A stretch of DNA of 60,724 bases, counting the filler, from Ionaspis alba (taxonomy: Eukaryota): NCBI GenBank assembly GCA_964255285.1. It is 6 parts of 6 records of this genome, joined end to end, with 100 filler letters (N's around TTAATTAATTAA, not from the genome) between each part and the next. Parts side by side here need not be neighbours in the genome. Positions count along the whole stretch, not along the records: positions 1 to 10,071 come from CAXUUL010000629.1; 5 more parts are not named here. One strand, 5' to 3'. The stretch's first letter is position 1. Every line of letters begins with the position of its first letter. Made by a program: the position numbers and the translations under genes. The notes beneath the pieces were generated by a model. The model ran no database searches. It was given only the letters and a program-made list of their open reading frames with translations, and was not told the origin of the DNA. Shown piece by piece: positions 1,142 to 50,290 of this stretch.

Positions 1142-3223
1142 TTATCTGACGATGTCGTGGTCCACAAGATGCATAGCAACCTCGTGTCTAGCTGTTTGTC
1201 CACGGTAGTGTTTCTTGCCACGAACGAACCAATCGACTACGATAATAACAACAACGACGGCATAGACGGCAGAAACATAATTCATATCTGTTCTAGTGAG
1301 TATCAGGACAATGGCGAAAGGAAGGACAACTTACTGCCGGCTGCGACAGGGAACACTGGTGGGAAGCTGTACATGATGAGGGTGAAGACTGTCCAGATGA
1401 GTAGGACAATGTTGGCGAACAGTCCGAGAGACCCCATCCAGAACGGGCCATGCTGGATATTGTTGCGACCTTTGATCAGAAGGCATACGACCGGAATGGC
1501 ATACGAAATGTACAGGAGTACAATACAGGCAGTCACCATACTGGAGAAAAATAGAGGTCAGCATGTACAACTAGTTTTGAACGTCTGACCAATTAAATCC
1601 TTGAACAACGGCTGCAAAGCATGAGATAGGAGCATAAGGATATATGAGAAGTGAGCTTCAAGTCGCACGATACAGATGATTATAGTTCAAATCATCTGCC
1701 AATCATAGAGCTCGATGGCTCTTGGCAACTCGAGAAAGGGCAGACTAGGATTTTCAGGGCTGGAGAGTTAGGTTTGAAGAGACCCCCAAAGTCGACAGCT
1801 AGTTGACTAGGATATTCGCATGGTGCTCTGCGTCCATGGATGTACACAAGAGATTTTGTTCATGCCAGAATCTGAAGGGAAAGAGTACACGAAAAGACCA
1901 GAGAAAGATCAGAGATAGGGATGAGAAGGTCAAGCTCACCTATTGAAAGCAGTGTATGACCCCAGGTACAGGCAGCCTAGGATAGCCACGATGACGCAAC
2001 TAACGAAATGAGCCTGCAGAGGAACGTCCAACTTAGGATGTACATGGCTGAGGAATTTGGCAGCTGGTAGACCATTGTCTCGTGCAAAGCTCCAGCACAA
2101 CCTTGATTGCCAAGTATGACTCGCAATCTGACAGCCAATGCCCGTAGCGATGATCAAACTTTCGAGAACGATTGCTCCAGCCTTGTTGGAGAGGGCCTGG
2201 TAGAAGAGTTCCAGGATCGGAACGAAGGTCAAGGTGCCAAACAACCCGTCGAGGTCTTGCATACTGAAGAACATAGAAACCGAATAGAACCAAGCAGTAA
2301 CGAAGCCAATGGCCACAGTGCCCATGATGGCGATTGGAATCATCTTCTCGGGTCTGGCGACCTCCTCTGCCATGTGTGTAGCACAATCCAAGCACGCGAA
2401 CGCCCAATTGGTGTTGATTAGACCAACGATGAAGGCAATGCCATTGGATTCCCAGCCAGTATTATTGACGAAGTTGGCAAAGACGAACTTGGCCTCTTGA
2501 TGCGTAGGAGCCCGGGCTGGGACCACAACCAAAATGACGAAGAAGGAGACGAGCGAGGTGTACAGGGTGGCGGTGGAAATGTTCGGTAGTATTTTGCCGT
2601 AGCAGTTGAAGAAGAAGGCAAAGGTATTAATGACTTGATAACCGACGAAAACGTGCCAAGGTAGAATTTCACTAGTTACTGTTAGTACGTCGTTGAACAG
2701 GACATGTTATGGAAAGAGGAGCAGCCTACAAATCGGGGTGAGCAAGCTGCCAACAGCCTACGACAGCGCTTCCCACAGCCAGTGCAACACTAGCTGACGT
2801 GAAGATGCTTCCTGCCCAAGCGAACCAGCCAGTCAAGTATGAAGCGAAATTGGCATATCGTTTGGGTGCCAACTCGTTGGCCCAAAAGTATTGTCCACCG
2901 GCATTGGGCAAAGCACTCGCCAGTTCGGATAAGGAAATGCCCACACAAGTCGAGATCAGAGCGATGAGGATGATGCCGTAGATGATCAGGACAGGACCAC
3001 CCGAGTTGATGCCGGTGACGAGGGCAGCAGAAATTCCAAACCACGAGTTGGTTAGTGAAAAGCCGACTCCCAGGACGGACCAAACGGAGAAGTTGCGCTT
3101 CATGTCTTGGGTGTAACCCATTTCGGCCAATTTGAGGGCATCGGCGTCAAGAGATTTGAGGTTGTCCATGTTGTCCTCCGATGGCGCACGGCCAATATCG
3201 AGGTCATTCTTCTCTTGATTCAT
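1142..3223 (-). CDS. HNM1: Choline / amino-acid permease (APC family, HNM1-like)
   Basis: Motifs LAEMGYTQDMKRNFSVWS, ELASALPNAGGQYFW, DCATHMAEEV and QSRLCWSFARDNGLP. Exons 3223-2730, 2671-1940, 1540-1335 and 1287-1142 join in frame through GT-AG introns. Confidence 0.85.
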
Positions 3224-4535
3224 CGTGACGTCGCACCAGCTGTGGGTAGACCTCGTCGAAGTTGGAACAGCGCGCGTTGGGTGGGTTAACCCAAGTCTGA
3301 GATGAGGGTTGCTCTTTGCGCGGGTGCGATGATGCGTCTGGCGCTTGTGGAATCGGAGGTGGAAGACAGGCCAGGCGGGGGATATGTATCTCAGTAGTCA
3401 CACGGCACGAAGGATGCAGTCAGGCCTTATCAATTAGGGCTTCGGTAGGCAGATATGGGGGGGGGTAACACGTTCCTTCGGGGATTTGTCAATATCGAAT
3501 GTCGTTATGGATGGAAGGAAAATCACGAGCGTCGTCAACCACTGAACTGACCACACGAGGAAAGAATGGTAAGTTGGTCTATGCGACAACCGTCTCCAAG
3601 TGATCTCTGTGTCAACTATCATACAATGCGGAGACTCAGCTCCCAAGGGCGTGATGGAGAGAAAAGTCCACTGGAGCTTGGTCGAAAGGAGGAAGGAGAT
3701 CCCAAGCAACGCCGAGGATCGCGGAAGGCTGGCTGGCACGTTCGTTGTGTTTTCTGCCGCTAGGAGATAACGACACCATTCATCCACCATCAACCAGACC
3801 CCCGGGGGAGAGGAAAACATGGCAACGGCATGGAAAGCGGGTTCCCAATGGTTTCCATGACGCCGGCACGGCATGTGGTTGCAAGCATGGACATGAGAGG
3901 AAAAGGATCAATTGGTTTCGTTTATCCACCAAGAGATGCTTGATTGCAAGCGTGTCACTAGTGGGAGGCCAGGAGGGGAGCATCGTGCTGTGATTCGTCC
4001 ACACCCACCCATCCAGAACGTCTAGGCCACCACCACCACCACACTGAAATTTGATTTGAAAGTCGAGCGACGACCAGTGCGGCAAGTACCAGATGGAGAC
4101 TTCCCTCCGTTAGAAACGGGTCATTCACCGTCATTGTCGTACCAGCGTCCAAACAAAACTCAACAAATTGATATACAGCTTATTGTCTATGTTTCCATGC
4201 TTGTCATCAAGCTCCGTGTAGCGTGTCTCGAGAGGCAGGAAGTCTTTGACTATTTCCACCGGTTTGACACTTTACATATTTGCTGAACTTTCCTGCACGT
4301 CGCTCTATCTCTCGTTCTCGATCTATGAATTCGACGATTCTAACCTCATCCACGCCCTCGAATGTTGTTCTGTAGTCAAGGGTTTGGGAGTGCGAAACAT
4401 GCTCATTCATAAAACACGCCTTGTTCGCTTCTTTCCAGGTCTTCGTACGGGGTATTTCCACAAGATCATACCTGCCAGACCAAAGAGCACAGCCCATATT
4501 ACCACCTTGGAGGTCCATATGACTCCAGAGCTGAG

Positions 4536-5525
<990 letters not shown>

Positions 5526-5751
5526 TCAATATTTTATAGATCGATCTGCGAAGAAGTCGAAAAGAGGATACATAGAAGCCTCAGTTAGAATGTTGAATAT
5601 GGGCGACGTTTAGATCCGAAGTATAACCGAATCACTGTTTGACTTCGGCCCTTGCTGCGATTGGGTAATAGGGTAAACAACAGCCTTCGACAGGGATCAA
5701 TTTCAACGCTCAGTCTCAATCCTATTGCTAGCCGTGAAAGCTCTCCCAAGC

Positions 5752-8453
5752 ATGACCACCACAATTCGACCAACCTCGAAGCGCAAACACCCTGATGGAC
5801 AAGCTTCAGCTTCAAACCTATCCCTTCACAACACGAAACGCGTCAAGGTCTTTTCAGCACGTTCCATCCTCTCGCAGACCTCGGACAAGGCACTCAATCA
5901 GAATGGCGAGCTCGATGTCTCTGCCTTTGTCAAGGCTCGTGAATACGAGATCAAGTCGCTGGAAGCAGGGATTGGTGCCTCCGAGAAAGCCTTGAGCACA
6001 AGGGCATTTCAACAAGTGCCCAGGGAGCTACGAAGAAGAACCGCCAGTCACAATGTGAAGAAGGTACCGAAGAGGTTGAGGGCTAGAGCCGCTAAGGAGG
6101 TCAGATACGCATTTTCTCCTCGTCTAGGAGGCTTTTGAGCTCGAGAGACTGACTCGATCTGGGAAGGGAATAGATGAAGGATGACAATACAGCCACAGTC
6201 ACGCCTCGAAGCCGCAATCTCAGCGCTACCCAGCATTTAAGAGCCAACAAAGTCAAGAGACTTCAGGGGATTGGGGCTCGGGCAAAGGCGACGAAAGAAG
6301 CCAAAAGGAATCCTCATAATGACAAAGATTCCTCGAAAGTCGACATCCTTGCTTCAAGTGCTCCGAAATTCAAGGCCAATACACTTGCAGTTCCTGTCGT
6401 GACATCCTCCAAATTCCGGAAGCGCCAGAAGCACAAATCGTGGTTACCCACCCACCTATACCACGCAAGGAGAGCACACATGACCTTACCAGAGAAACCA
6501 TTGTGGAGGTTCGCGATACCCATGACACCTACCGAGAAGAGCTACAGGGCTACTCACCGAGCGAGCTCACTGCGTGGATGCATTTCTTGGGATATGAGCT
6601 ACATAAGCACAATCGGCATCGAAGGCGTGGAAGGGAGTCTGGTTGGGCTGCTACGATGCCTAGGTGTACCGGAAGACCAATTGAGCTCAAAGAAGGGAAT
6701 TAGGTGGAGGAACGGAACTCGGTCATGGAGTGGTTGGGTTAGAGAACGGGATAATGCACAGACTTGGATCGCAGAGATCATGGTGCTGTGGTGCGCTCTG
6801 GAGGCTTCCCAAACAGTTGCTGGAGAGACAGCTATGGATATTGCGCCGTTCATGAAAAGCAAAACAAAAAGGGGAATGTTGATCAGGGTACATCCCTCAG
6901 CCTTCCTGCAAGTCTGGACGGAAATACTCAAAGTCGCCAAAATGCAACGTCCGTCCCCTTCCGTAGAGGATTTGAGGTTCGAAATCGGAAGCATCGATAT
7001 CGTGGGCCCAGGGGCGACTGCGGCTCTTGTGGGAGCATTACATCCCCTTAGCGCTGATGACTCCGATAGCCCTAACGTGCACGCAAGGTCCGCTTGGGGT
7101 GCGATCTGGAAGCAGCTGTCAAACATCAGTAATCCAGCTTGCCTACCTCCAAATGTGATTCTTGGGTTCGAGGTGTCCGACCCCCGCCTTTATTACCCAC
7201 CCCGAAAAGTCGAGGCGTCCGCTCCATCGCCGTCGGAGGACGATCTTCTTTACATTCTTTCATCCTGGCCACCTGATGAACAACCGTGTCCCTTATCCTT
7301 CTTTGACCGCAAGGCACGGTTAGAAGCATCACGAGCTCTTCCGAGTCAAAAGTCAATCAACCGACGGAAAGGAGATGCACTGGCTGGATCTTATCCAAGT
7401 CCTCTCTCATCTGACCCACGCATTCCCGTTGTTCTTTTAGCCTCCCGTCATGGTGACGGGGTAGGGAGTCAAGGTTCATGGACAGTACTTCTTCCATGGA
7501 AGTGTATAAAGCCGGTCTGGTATTCTCTGCTTCACTATCCTCTCAGTTCTGGCGGCAATCCTCGGTTCGGAGGGTTACAGGAGATCAGGCAGATTTCGTT
7601 TGAGAACCATGTTCCATGGTTTCCGGCAGACTTTCCAGGAACCAAGGCGGGCTGGGAATGGGAGATGAACGAGCGGAAAAGGCGTAAATTGGAATGGGGA
7701 AAGCATCCAAAGGGTCGCAGGATTGAGTGGGAGAGCGTGGATCTTGGCCAAGGTCGAAGAGGTGAGATTGGAAAGGGTTGGGCCTGTGATTGGGAACGTC
7801 TTCTTGATGTTTCTCCAGAGTCGGGGCCTACCTCAGAGTCGGACCAAATAGACAATGTCGTCCAACCAAACTCCGGGGCACAATCGGTTACGTCTGCTCA
7901 CATCAATCTCGATCATCTGCCGCCGGGGAGTCCTAAGCCCGTGCTTGCTTTGTCGTTCTCTAGAACACTAGCCACAGTCAGGCTTTCTTTTCTGTTCCGT
8001 GGAGCACCAACAACCTGCGCTCGGATCTATCGCTTCCCCACTACCGATTCAGTATTACGGGAGAAGTGGATTGCACTCTCCGAGTCTCAGTCCAGGATCG
8101 CTACCAAGCTCTCAGTCAACTCGAAAAATAGACTGCTGTCATCGGATGCGCCGTCCCATGAGAGGCGTACAGCTTTGGCAGCGTCGATTCTTGCGAACCC
8201 AACAGCCAATTTCGAAAATCAACCAGACGCCTTGGATGATGTCACGTGCCCCGCGGTACCTGCTGAGGAGGATTTGATAGGCTTTGTGACCACTGGGAAC
8301 TTCAACTTGGGAGAAGGGAGGGGCACGGGCATTGGAGCCGTTGCTCTTTCAAAATTGGGCACAGATTTTGGAAACGGAAAGCAGGGTGGACTGTGCATCG
8401 TGCGGGATGCAGGGAACAGGGTTGGAAGGATTGCTAGATGGAACATGGCGTAA
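5752..8453 (+). CDS. POP1: RNase P/MRP protein subunit POP1
   Basis: RAFQQVPRELRRRTASHN, WLPTHLYHARRAHM, POPLD region (WTVLLPW..PWFPADFPGT) and C-terminal LIGFVTTGNFNLGEGRG. Intron 6100-6173. Confidence 0.93.
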
Positions 8454-48507: not shown

Positions 48508-50290
48508 ATGGATCTTATTCGTGAAGCGCCCATCGGGCAATTGCTCCGCTACATTACTGGGGATCGTGTGTTACTCTATCCAGAAGAGAAGTCGGACTTC
48601 ATACTCCCGGATAGGTACCGCTTGGCATTGGGAGAGAAAGCCTTGAGTATACCGTCAACGACCAGCACATTTTCGTCCCCTTCGACGTCTTCGTTTGGCA
48701 GAGACGAGCGTACTCTTGCTGATACCGAAATTGGTTCTGGGGACTTGCACTCACAAATCGTTGCACCTCATGCTATCAATGATGGAGCAATCCTTGTTGA
48801 CTGGTACAGCACGAATGACCCGGCCAATCCACAGAATTGGTCGAACTCAAAACGATCAGTTGTTGCAAGCATCATATGTCTCTACACCTTTGTAGTCTAC
48901 ACTGGCTCGGCTATCTATACTTCCAGCGAGCCCGGCGTCATGGCAGCCTTTGGTGTCTCTGCTCAACAGGCGGCTCTCCCACTATCGCTGTACGTCCTAG
49001 CATACGGAATTGGACCCCTCCTATTTGCTCCGCTTAGTGAGATACCCTCAATCGGCCGTAATCCGGTGTATGCTGTGACGTTTGTCCTGTTCGTCGTACT
49101 GTGTCTTCCCACCGCATTGGTCAACAGCTTCGGAGGGCTTCTCGTGTTACGATTCCTTCAAGGCTTTTTTGGAAGCCCATGCCTCGCCAATGGAGGTGCT
49201 TCGATGCAAGATCTATACTCCGAACTCAACATTCCCTTTGCGATGACTGTATGGGTATCAGCTGCTTATGGAGGACCTGCGCTTGGCCCCTTGTTGTCTG
49301 GTTTTGCTGTTACTGCCAAAGGCTGGCGGTGGTCGTTGTGGGAGATCTTATGGGTGAGGCAGCCCTGATTCGTATCCGCATATGGGGGCTAACTTTGCGA
49401 TATAGCTAGCAGCACCCATTTGCGTATTCTTGATGCTGTTCCTCGCCGAGACTCATGCACCTACCATCCTTCTGCGCCGTGCTCAGCGTCTGCGCAAAAT
49501 TACTGGATCGCATCGCCTTAGATCACAGAGCGAGATTGATCAAGCTCATCTCACGCCTCGTGCTGTTGCTTTCGATGCCCTGATCAAGCCCGTCGAGATC
49601 TCTCTCAAAGATCCAGCTGTGGGCTTCACGAAGTTAGTCACATTCTTAGGCTCGTCTGCATTCATGCTAAGTCAGTACAGTGCGTACACTAGCCTTGTTT
49701 ATGGAATATATTATTCCTTCTTCGAAGTATTTCCCATGGTGTATCCCCCAATGTACGGTTTCAACCTTGGAGAGCTAGGTCTGGTCTTTATCTGTATCAT
49801 CGTGGCATGCTTCATTGGAGCGATCGTCTACGCATCTTATGTTTATCTCCGACTCAATCCAGACATCAGGAAGAATGGTGCCAAGCCTCATGAGTATCGT
49901 CTTCGGCCGGCTTTATTGGCCACATTTGGCCCGCCCATTGGGCTGTTTCTTTTCGGGTGGACAGCGACGCCGAAGGTTCATTGGATCGTGTCCGTCATTG
50001 GCGTCGTCATCTACTCGATAGGGGTCTTCACCATTTTGCAATGTCTCTCTATCTACATCCCGCGCAGCTACCCCGAGTACGCAGCGTCACTGTTCGCGGC
50101 CAACGACTTCTGCCGATCTGCCCTCGCAGCTGGGGCCATTCACTTCGCTTCTCCACTCTATATCAACCTGGGTGTGGGAAAAGGTGTTTCGGTGCTTGCA
50201 GGTCTAAGTACTCTAGGCATTGCTGGCATGTTCTTTATCTATATCTGGGGCGCAAAGTTGAGGGCAAGGTCTAAGTTTGCCGTGTCCTAG
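48508..50290 (+). CDS. DHA1-family MFS drug:H+ antiporter (Caf5/FLR1-like)
   Basis: MDLIREAPIGQ, LVDWYSTNDPANPQNWS, LSEIPSIGRNPVY, LRFLQGFFGSP and YAASLFAANDFCRS. Introns 49354-49405 and 49633-49680. Confidence 0.92.

Follow-up and report, generated by a model that had tools for sequence, protein, structure and literature searches.

Can a soluble enzyme be given a membrane anchor by translation past its own stop codon? This question is raised by a thioesterase gene of Ionaspis alba, located in the stretch of DNA analysed here (60,724 nucleotides, six parts joined end to end; hereafter the window), in which the reading frame stays open behind the stop codon and encodes a hydrophobic stretch followed by a basic tail.

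The APT1 gene and the frame behind its stop codon

The gene lies on the minus strand (5507-4536) and consists of five exons, with GT-AG at all borders and an open frame after splicing. Exon 1 (5413..5507), which was also placed with the help of homologues, begins with the ATG at 5507 and encodes an N-terminus without a nearby cysteine, and exons 2 (5230..5356) and 3 (5004..5127) were assigned from their borders and the open spliced frame. Exon 4 (4691..4952) encodes the nucleophile motif GFSQG together with GHGDQD and matches PF02230 (Abhydrolase_2; E 5.4e-17), and exon 5 up to the stop (4539..4638) encodes HSAD with the catalytic His, the last helix and a polar linker. The spliced product has 236 residues, and its motifs GFSQG (117), GHGDQD (170) and HSAD (207), all intact, are those that we take to form the Ser-Asp-His triad. 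The top named matches are APT1 proteins; the nearest named relatives belong to lichen-forming Lecanoromycetes, among them Toensbergia, Icmadophila and Loxospora, and the same grouping was found in the tree. When the top named homologue (P0003) was compared with the PDB, human APT1/APT2 (1fj2, 5sym, 5syn) came closest with an E of about 2e-45, and LYPLAL1 gave 2e-27. Judged by sequence, the window protein is an acyl-protein thioesterase 1 of the LYPLA1/2-like kind that resembles APT1/2 more than it does LYPLAL1 or the bacterial carboxylesterases, and its soluble form is an alpha/beta-hydrolase predicted to act as a depalmitoylase or lysophospholipase.

The first cysteine of the window protein is residue 48, so that the N-terminal Cys2 S-acylation feature of mammals is absent, and a cysteine within the first six residues was found in only 1 of 218 near-full-length fungal APT1 homologues. 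Upstream of the start codon the open frame never extends beyond 6 codons, and no signal peptide was found. The normal C-termini of the homologues are mostly x-x-Leu (SEL in 47, PEL in 13 and TSL in 10 of 218); such C-termini also occur in tail-less Sordariomycetes. On the plus strand, a divergent neighbour, presumably POP1-like from its translation, occupies 5677-8453, with a short stretch of intergenic DNA between it and APT1; the gene downstream of APT1 (1300-3220, minus strand) is, as we assume from its translation, amino-acid/choline permease-like.

On the minus strand, the coding sequence ends in ...ESTSSKT and TGA (4538-4536), behind which CTC AGC opens a run of 42 sense codons in all that is closed by TGA (4409-4407). 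The first stop stands in the putatively leaky context TGA-CT (4534..4538; UGA-CU core), which is conserved in orthologues and is reported as sufficient for readthrough in Ustilago maydis (PMC4207609). Residues 1-10 of the extension (4506..4535) form a spacer preceding the helix, and the spacers of orthologues, 2-42 codons long, are stop-free among the matches listed. Residues 11-26 (4458..4505) form the core of a transmembrane helix predicted by Kyte-Doolittle (KD) hydropathy (16-mer KD 2.42, best 19-mer KD 1.79), followed by a basic tail of 16 residues (4410..4457) with 8 K/R, no D/E and a net charge of +8. The second stop (4407..4409) is TGA-A, a non-leaky context; among the matches listed, the second stop is TGA in 24, TAA in 19 and TAG in 16, and TGA-C in only 2 of 59. 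The preliminary description of this locus had named the TGA-CTC, the 42-codon open frame, the hydrophobic helix and the 16-residue tail with 8 K/R, and its coordinates and counts proved exact.

A public contig, possibly the one from which the window derives, is near-identical to the window over 3400-6400, with a sole difference at 5643, so that the TGA-CTC and the open frame are not a local assembly slip. In a further public run, 4270-4431 of the window is covered by one short contig. The difference at 5643, upstream of the APT1 start, is a single C/T difference from both covering public runs.

How often such a frame arises by chance was estimated in several ways. When sequences were drawn from the 3' region's first-order Markov null model, any in-frame helix appeared in 0.36% of 20,000 draws, and a helix with KD >= 2.0 and a tail of at least +4 in 1 of 20,000. 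Within the window, a tail-anchor-like frame follows 16 of 4,290 other stop triplets; for TGACT, with the APT1 site counted, it follows 2 of 125 sites. The only other such TGACT site, at 49244 on the plus strand, has a weak tail-anchor-like frame and seems to lie inside a long ORF of another frame, probably by chance. Behind 72 long-ORF ends of the window, which are not curated gene ends, a short frame with a hydrophobic stretch was found twice, in neither case after TGA-CT. These counts are a rough check on the earlier statement that nothing comparable stands behind most other genes of the window.

Orthologues, losses and selection

To collect orthologues, a degenerate last-exon motif pattern was run against metagenome contigs, which yielded at least 115 loci; the pattern had been drawn from non-Sordariomycete proteins, and Sordariomycetes are under-sampled. 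One locus without an APT1 match (L065) and three without a stop inside the locus (L008, L039 and L090, the last also unrelated-looking) were left out, and the 111 kept loci and the window were reduced to 83 distinct sequences at 90% identity (82 metagenome loci and the window). A tail was called when the frame of the stop stayed open for 30-89 codons (59 of 60 within 30-55) and contained a 17-residue window with KD >= 1.6 and no more than one charge.

As had been supposed for orthologues, UGA-C is conserved and the frame stays open, with an in-frame helix and a basic flank past the stop in 60 of the 83 distinct sequences among the matches listed. Applied to the same matches, the helix test was positive in 1/83 and 0/83 for the +1 and +2 frames, in 0/40 behind the second stop and in 20/731 (~2.7%) behind arbitrary downstream stop triplets. 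The first stop is TGA in all 60 listed tail-bearing sequences, with C at +4 in 59 and T at +5 in 58. TGA-CT is found in 57 of these 60 versus 2 of the 23 listed tail-less sequences (Fisher p 2e-14, a value inflated by kinship); the tail-less ones otherwise have TGA in another context (12) or TAA or TAG (9). Both tail-less sequences with TGA-CT, L015 and L032, keep the motif but lack the in-frame helix. In three loci, L027, L060 and L099, the helix occurs without CT, behind TGA-CGA, TGA-ATA and TGA-CCA, respectively.

The triplet behind TGA in the listed tail-bearing sequences is CTA in 19, CTC in 17, CTG in 14 and CTT in 7, with CGA, CCA and ATA once each. The first codon past the stop is therefore CTN in 57 and TTR in none of them, compared with 65% CTN and 35% TTR for the other Leu codons of the listed extensions, which places the constraint here on the bases. 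With the third base after UGA-CU free, the CUC of the window is a normal form of the motif. The preliminary description had regarded UGA-C as leaky and best known as UGA-CUA; the C at +4 stands, but what orthologues conserve is UGA-CU, the third base being free.

Behind the helix stands a basic residue in 60/60 of the listed tail-bearing sequences, and at least two of the next six residues are K/R in 57. In the same listed set, the tail beyond the helix has a median of 14 residues (maximum 30) and a median net charge of +4, the charge ranging from -2 to +9 and being 0 or negative in 5/60, and the helix starts at a median of 24 residues past the end of the catalytic fold. By hydropathy, this is the layout of a tail anchor, with a single helix at most 30 residues from the C-terminus and no signal peptide. 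The sequence of the extension is not kept between orders, but the properties of spacer, helix and basic flank are. In L026 and L058, near-copies of L003, an Arg stands inside the helix.

Assigned by the best named match at >= 65% identity, the tail-bearing sequences among the matches listed are Dothideomycete-like (31), Leotiomycete-like (9), Eurotiomycete-like (6), Lecanoromycete-like (5, the window counted) and Pycnora-like (1), and 8 have no assignment. The class labels (Dothideo-, Leotio-, Eurotio- and Lecanoromycetes) are those to which we take the best-match named genera to belong. By these assignments, tail-bearing APT1 genes span four fungal classes. In a tree of 75 of the 83 sequences, in which deep nodes have weak support and Sordariomycetes are under-sampled, about eight tail-less lineages are nested amid tail-bearing ones among the matches listed, namely a Lecanorales clade, L037/L091, L057/L098, L040, L032, L015, L070 and L113; UGA-CU is also gone in six of these listed lineages. 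No tail was found in the three listed Sordariomycete-like loci (L010, L093, L104) or in the distant L020 and L094. The tail is thus missing in 23/83 of the matches listed, including the Sordariomycete-like loci and the Lecanorales clade, indicating that it is dispensable in many lineages.

Several tail-less loci bear traces of other states. In L032, the sister of the intact L041, and in L031, decayed remnants of the extension were seen, with the hydrophobic stretch frameshifted or interrupted. In L015 and L115, an intact helix and basic tail lie in the +1 frame behind CTT-TGA-C, which in our estimation resembles the RF2 frameshift site, and the two loci differ in that frame by both synonymous and replacement changes; they possibly represent a recent relic or a +1 frameshift site. 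In 9 of 218 annotated proteins, the nine all from Sordariomycetes (4 Hypoxylaceae and 5 Fusarium; P0327, P0338, P0341, P0343, P0364, P0368, P0369, P0372 and P0375), the conserved Met is preceded by an in-frame hydrophobic N-terminal segment. Among the matches listed with a visible 5' end, such a segment was found in 3/7 tail-less versus 1/28 tail-bearing loci, the three being L037 and L040, with an upstream ATG, and L023, without one. These segments may possibly give a signal-anchor isoform from an upstream start; L043, which is near L037, lacks the segment, so that an N-terminal anchor in tail-less loci is only a hint.

Selection on the extension was measured over 18 independent, non-overlapping pairs among the matches listed. 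The extension gave a pS of 0.36 and a pN of 0.15 (pN/pS 0.41, dN/dS 0.33), and the last coding exon of the same pairs a pS of 0.33, a pN of 0.065 and a dN/dS of 0.16. In the shifted frames, the same aligned extension bases gave 0.91 and 1.38, and the differences in the extension fell on codon positions 1, 2 and 3 in 137, 95 and 226 cases. The ten pairs of equal length, compared gap-free, gave a pN/pS of 0.45 (0.92 and 1.25 in the shifted frames), the same picture, indicating that the signal is not a product of the protein-guided alignment. In a nucleotide indel test, with spurious gaps in distant pairs, multiples of three made up 8/33 in the extension versus 9/54 in the UTR. The extension is under protein-level purifying selection that is specific to the sense frame, and a dN/dS below 1, which had been put forward as a mark of a functional extension, is borne out by the value of 0.33.

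Probable readthrough and rival routes to a long form

One orthologue locus, L073, has no introns between Met and stop, although its close relatives do, and continues for 247 bases beyond the stop, holding the complete extension plus ~100 more bases. This cDNA-like contig suggests that in one orthologue the extension is part of the mature mRNA, in agreement, for this spliced-looking contig, with the earlier idea that the extension lies within the transcript. Folded as a single sequence, the read-through product of L073 had a poor overall pLDDT of 37.9, with 65-77 reached by the C-terminal helix alone, and this model is given no weight here.

A natural form without the stop was not found: a C-terminal helix occurs in 0 of the 218 near-full-length proteins, and a profile search of longer proteins (8,000 candidates scored) gave none in 54 matches. 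As the long isoform is in none of the 218 database proteins, proteomics searches would miss it. In a representative protein library (90 matches), P0161-P0163 fit the whole profile and have the same tail, with a W precisely where the stop would stand. P0011 breaks off at the point from which P0162 goes on, and we therefore read P0161-P0163 as gene calls in which UGA was taken for Trp rather than as cases of stop loss. Genome-wide reassignment of UGA was rejected because the second stop is itself TGA in the window and in 24/59 of the matches listed, and selenocysteine at the UGA was rejected on a statement in PMC4207609 and on the non-catalytic position. For RNA structure 3' of the stop, the mean z was 0.04, with z below -2 in 1/59 of the matches listed.

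We put the probability at roughly 85% that programmed UGA-CU readthrough yields a minor tail-anchored APT1 isoform. One mRNA would then give two products: most ribosomes would end at the UGA and free the soluble 236-residue APT1, and a near-cognate tRNA (Trp, Arg or Cys at UGA) would occasionally win at UGA-CU, probably at a rate of a few percent, adding 42 residues that comprise the spacer, one transmembrane helix and the short basic tail. The sole membrane segment of this 279-residue form would be C-terminal, which suggests insertion after translation, as a tail-anchored protein, and the catalytic domain would stay cytosolic on a flexible linker, beside S-acylated proteins or lysolipids of one organelle. 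The sequences themselves show the stop context, the open frame, the helix with its basic flank, their conservation, the amino-acid selection and the spliced-looking contig that includes the extension; readthrough as the route, membrane insertion and retained activity of the long form we infer. In Neurospora, a C at +4 is reported to promote readthrough (PMC12790415). The single early Cys among 218 fungal proteins suggests that the anchor replaces the Cys2 S-acylation of mammalian APT2, and the tail anchor would by this analogy supply a membrane-resident pool of APT1.

Readthrough might also occur without anchoring, the hydrophobic tail acting instead as a degradation signal that tunes dosage via Sgt2/GET-type triage. 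In animals, SGTA-BAG6 is reported to clear hydrophobic readthrough extensions (PMC10364623), and Fusarium Dbf2 is destabilised by stop-loss tails (PMC13123824). We consider this very improbable, since a readthrough of a few percent would presumably hardly shift dosage, the Fusarium tails are described in the latter source as disordered and not transmembrane, and polar spacer, one helix and basic flank, the real build of a tail anchor, are present in 60/60 of the listed tail-bearing sequences. Alternative splicing, using TGACT as a branch point with a downstream YAG acceptor or removing a small intron across the stop, could join the same frame to the coding sequence. TGAC resembles the fungal branch core CTRAC, intron 2 of the window gene contains GCTGACT, an in-frame CAG stands just past the window stop, and an in-frame YAG precedes the helix in 28/60 of the listed tail-bearing sequences. 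PTS1 isoforms are also created by splicing in fungi (PMC9549241). However, an out-of-frame YAG is found in 34/60 of the listed sequences, so that the in-frame one is no commoner; C precedes TGA in only 11/60 of them, the last intron is missing in 23/57 testable tail-bearing loci among the matches listed, and no more than 16/60 of these matches allow an intron across the stop, mostly with weak donors inside the last helix. Moreover, the in-frame CAG of the window is five bases from the would-be branch A, use of an alternative acceptor would remove the catalytic His, the spacer is stop-free in the frame of the stop in all 60 listed sequences, and L073 is unspliced there. On the sequences compared, splicing fails as a general route, and we hold it very improbable.

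The UGA could instead be turned into UGG by A-to-I editing at some developmental stage, and stop-loss editing does make C-terminal extensions in filamentous ascomycetes (PMC13123824). The known form is described there as biased to UAG in hairpins and for Sordariomycetes, but here the stop is TGA in 60/60 of the listed tail-bearing sequences, the 3' structure signal is absent and no UAG in a hairpin was found; with the conserved bases being those of the readthrough motif and three Sordariomycete-like loci being tail-less, we regard editing as highly improbable. The pattern might also stem from a hydrophobic 3' UTR frame that arose by chance, from an antisense gene overlapping the extension, or from reinitiation at an AUG further downstream: the window does have a long antisense frame (4222-4590) across this region, and a hydrophobic frame stands behind ~2.7% of arbitrary downstream stop triplets (20/731 among the matches listed). 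Yet antisense frames are open in just 14, 23 and 4 of the 60 listed sequences, a Met stands ahead of the helix in just 14/60 of them, and selection is specific to the sense frame. Such origins are largely refuted by conservation and selection and are extremely improbable.

Possible membrane target and comparison with known systems

If APT1 is anchored through UGA-CU readthrough, its target membrane would depend on helix and tail. In mammals, a highly positive tail favours the peroxisome and a moderately positive one mitochondria, low charge combined with a hydrophobic helix favours the ER, and in yeast a helix GRAVY > 1.75 marks an ER tail anchor (PMC5450235). Among the matches listed, 58/60 orthologue helices exceed 1.75, although the rules of PMC5450235 use differently defined helices; together with tail charges of -2 to +9, this leaves the ER as open as the peroxisome or mitochondrion. 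The preliminary description had seen a peroxisomal or mitochondrial signature, and the +8 tail of the window does fit the mammalian peroxisomal pattern, but the hydrophobicity and charge of the family admit the ER equally. For the window species we lean towards the peroxisome or the mitochondrial outer membrane, from its +8 tail and moderate helix (19-mer 1.79); orthologues with neutral tails would likely be directed to the ER, and the target may differ between lineages. A PTS1-like tripeptide ([SAC][KRH][LM]) ends the extension in 0/60 of the listed tail-bearing sequences, and no cryptic PTS1 isoform was thus found among them.

The preliminary description knew of no such isoform in the APT1 family. 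In agreement, a full-text literature search, with most subscription papers outside its scope, found no report of APT1 readthrough or of a readthrough-gated fungal tail anchor. The supplements of PMC4207609 gave no text match for the terms sought, and their Ustilago table perhaps lists genes by number alone; Neurospora supplements, searched by gene number, gave expression rows and no readthrough score.

An anchored APT1 would mean that functional readthrough in fungi can expose a complete membrane anchor as well as PTS1 tripeptides, in this case on the enzyme that erases protein palmitoylation, and would offer an answer to how a Cys2-less fungal APT1 reaches its membrane substrates. It also suggests that a hidden class of such isoforms could be sought by screening whole genomes for TGA-CT combined with a helix and a basic tail. 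As a tentative wider reading, which we think somewhat more apt to be wrong than right, UGA-CU readthrough might be a general switch between soluble and membrane forms in filamentous ascomycetes, with APT1 as the first transmembrane case, an ancient recoded anchor replacing the self-palmitoylation of animals. Lineages without the tail would then have regained an anchor either through an upstream start that supplies an N-terminal signal anchor (Hypoxylaceae, the Fusarium solani complex, L037, L040) or by a +1 frameshift at CUU-UGA-C (L015/L115), and the need for an anchored APT1 pool may be constant enough to force such regain.

Several known systems resemble parts of this proposal. Readthrough at UGA-CU(A) exposes a cryptic PTS1 in Ustilago PGK and others and in human LDHB and MDH1 (Stiebler 2014, PMC4207609), and cryptic PTS1 readthrough was also described by Freitag 2012, as cited in PMC9549241 and PMC3840789. 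The candidate APT1 isoform shares with these cases the stop context, the host group, the pairing of a major soluble product with a minor one sent elsewhere, and a patchy spread among species. Different from them, APT1 is a lipid/protein deacylase whose hidden signal would be a transmembrane helix with a basic tail, and its product would sit on the organelle surface facing the cytosol. In Drosophila, eight readthrough extensions with predicted transmembrane domains are reported; five of these eight are PhyloCSF-negative, and the tests reported there concern NLS extensions (Dunn 2013, PMC3840789). The APT1 extension likewise adds a predicted transmembrane segment to the C-terminus, but this predicted anchor is retained in four classes of fungi and is subject to purifying selection.

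Mammalian APT1/APT2 (LYPLA1/2) are the closest solved relatives and, like the fungal enzyme, have to get to membranes in order to act. Activity of APT1 in mitochondria is reported (PMC5780395), and stable binding of APT2 to membranes is reported to depend on S-acylation and a hydrophobic loop (10.1101/2020.06.18.157545). In contrast to the loop and Cys2 S-acylation of mammalian APT2, fungal APT1 is without an N-terminal Cys and appears to use a recoded tail anchor. A parallel in sorting is FALDH, whose tail-anchor isoforms FALDH-ER and FALDH-PO (PMC5450235) are, as proposed here for APT1, forms of one lipid enzyme sorted by the charge of the tail and by the helix at the C-terminus. In FALDH, however, each of the two forms is anchored, whereas APT1 has one soluble form, and its switch would be the stop codon.
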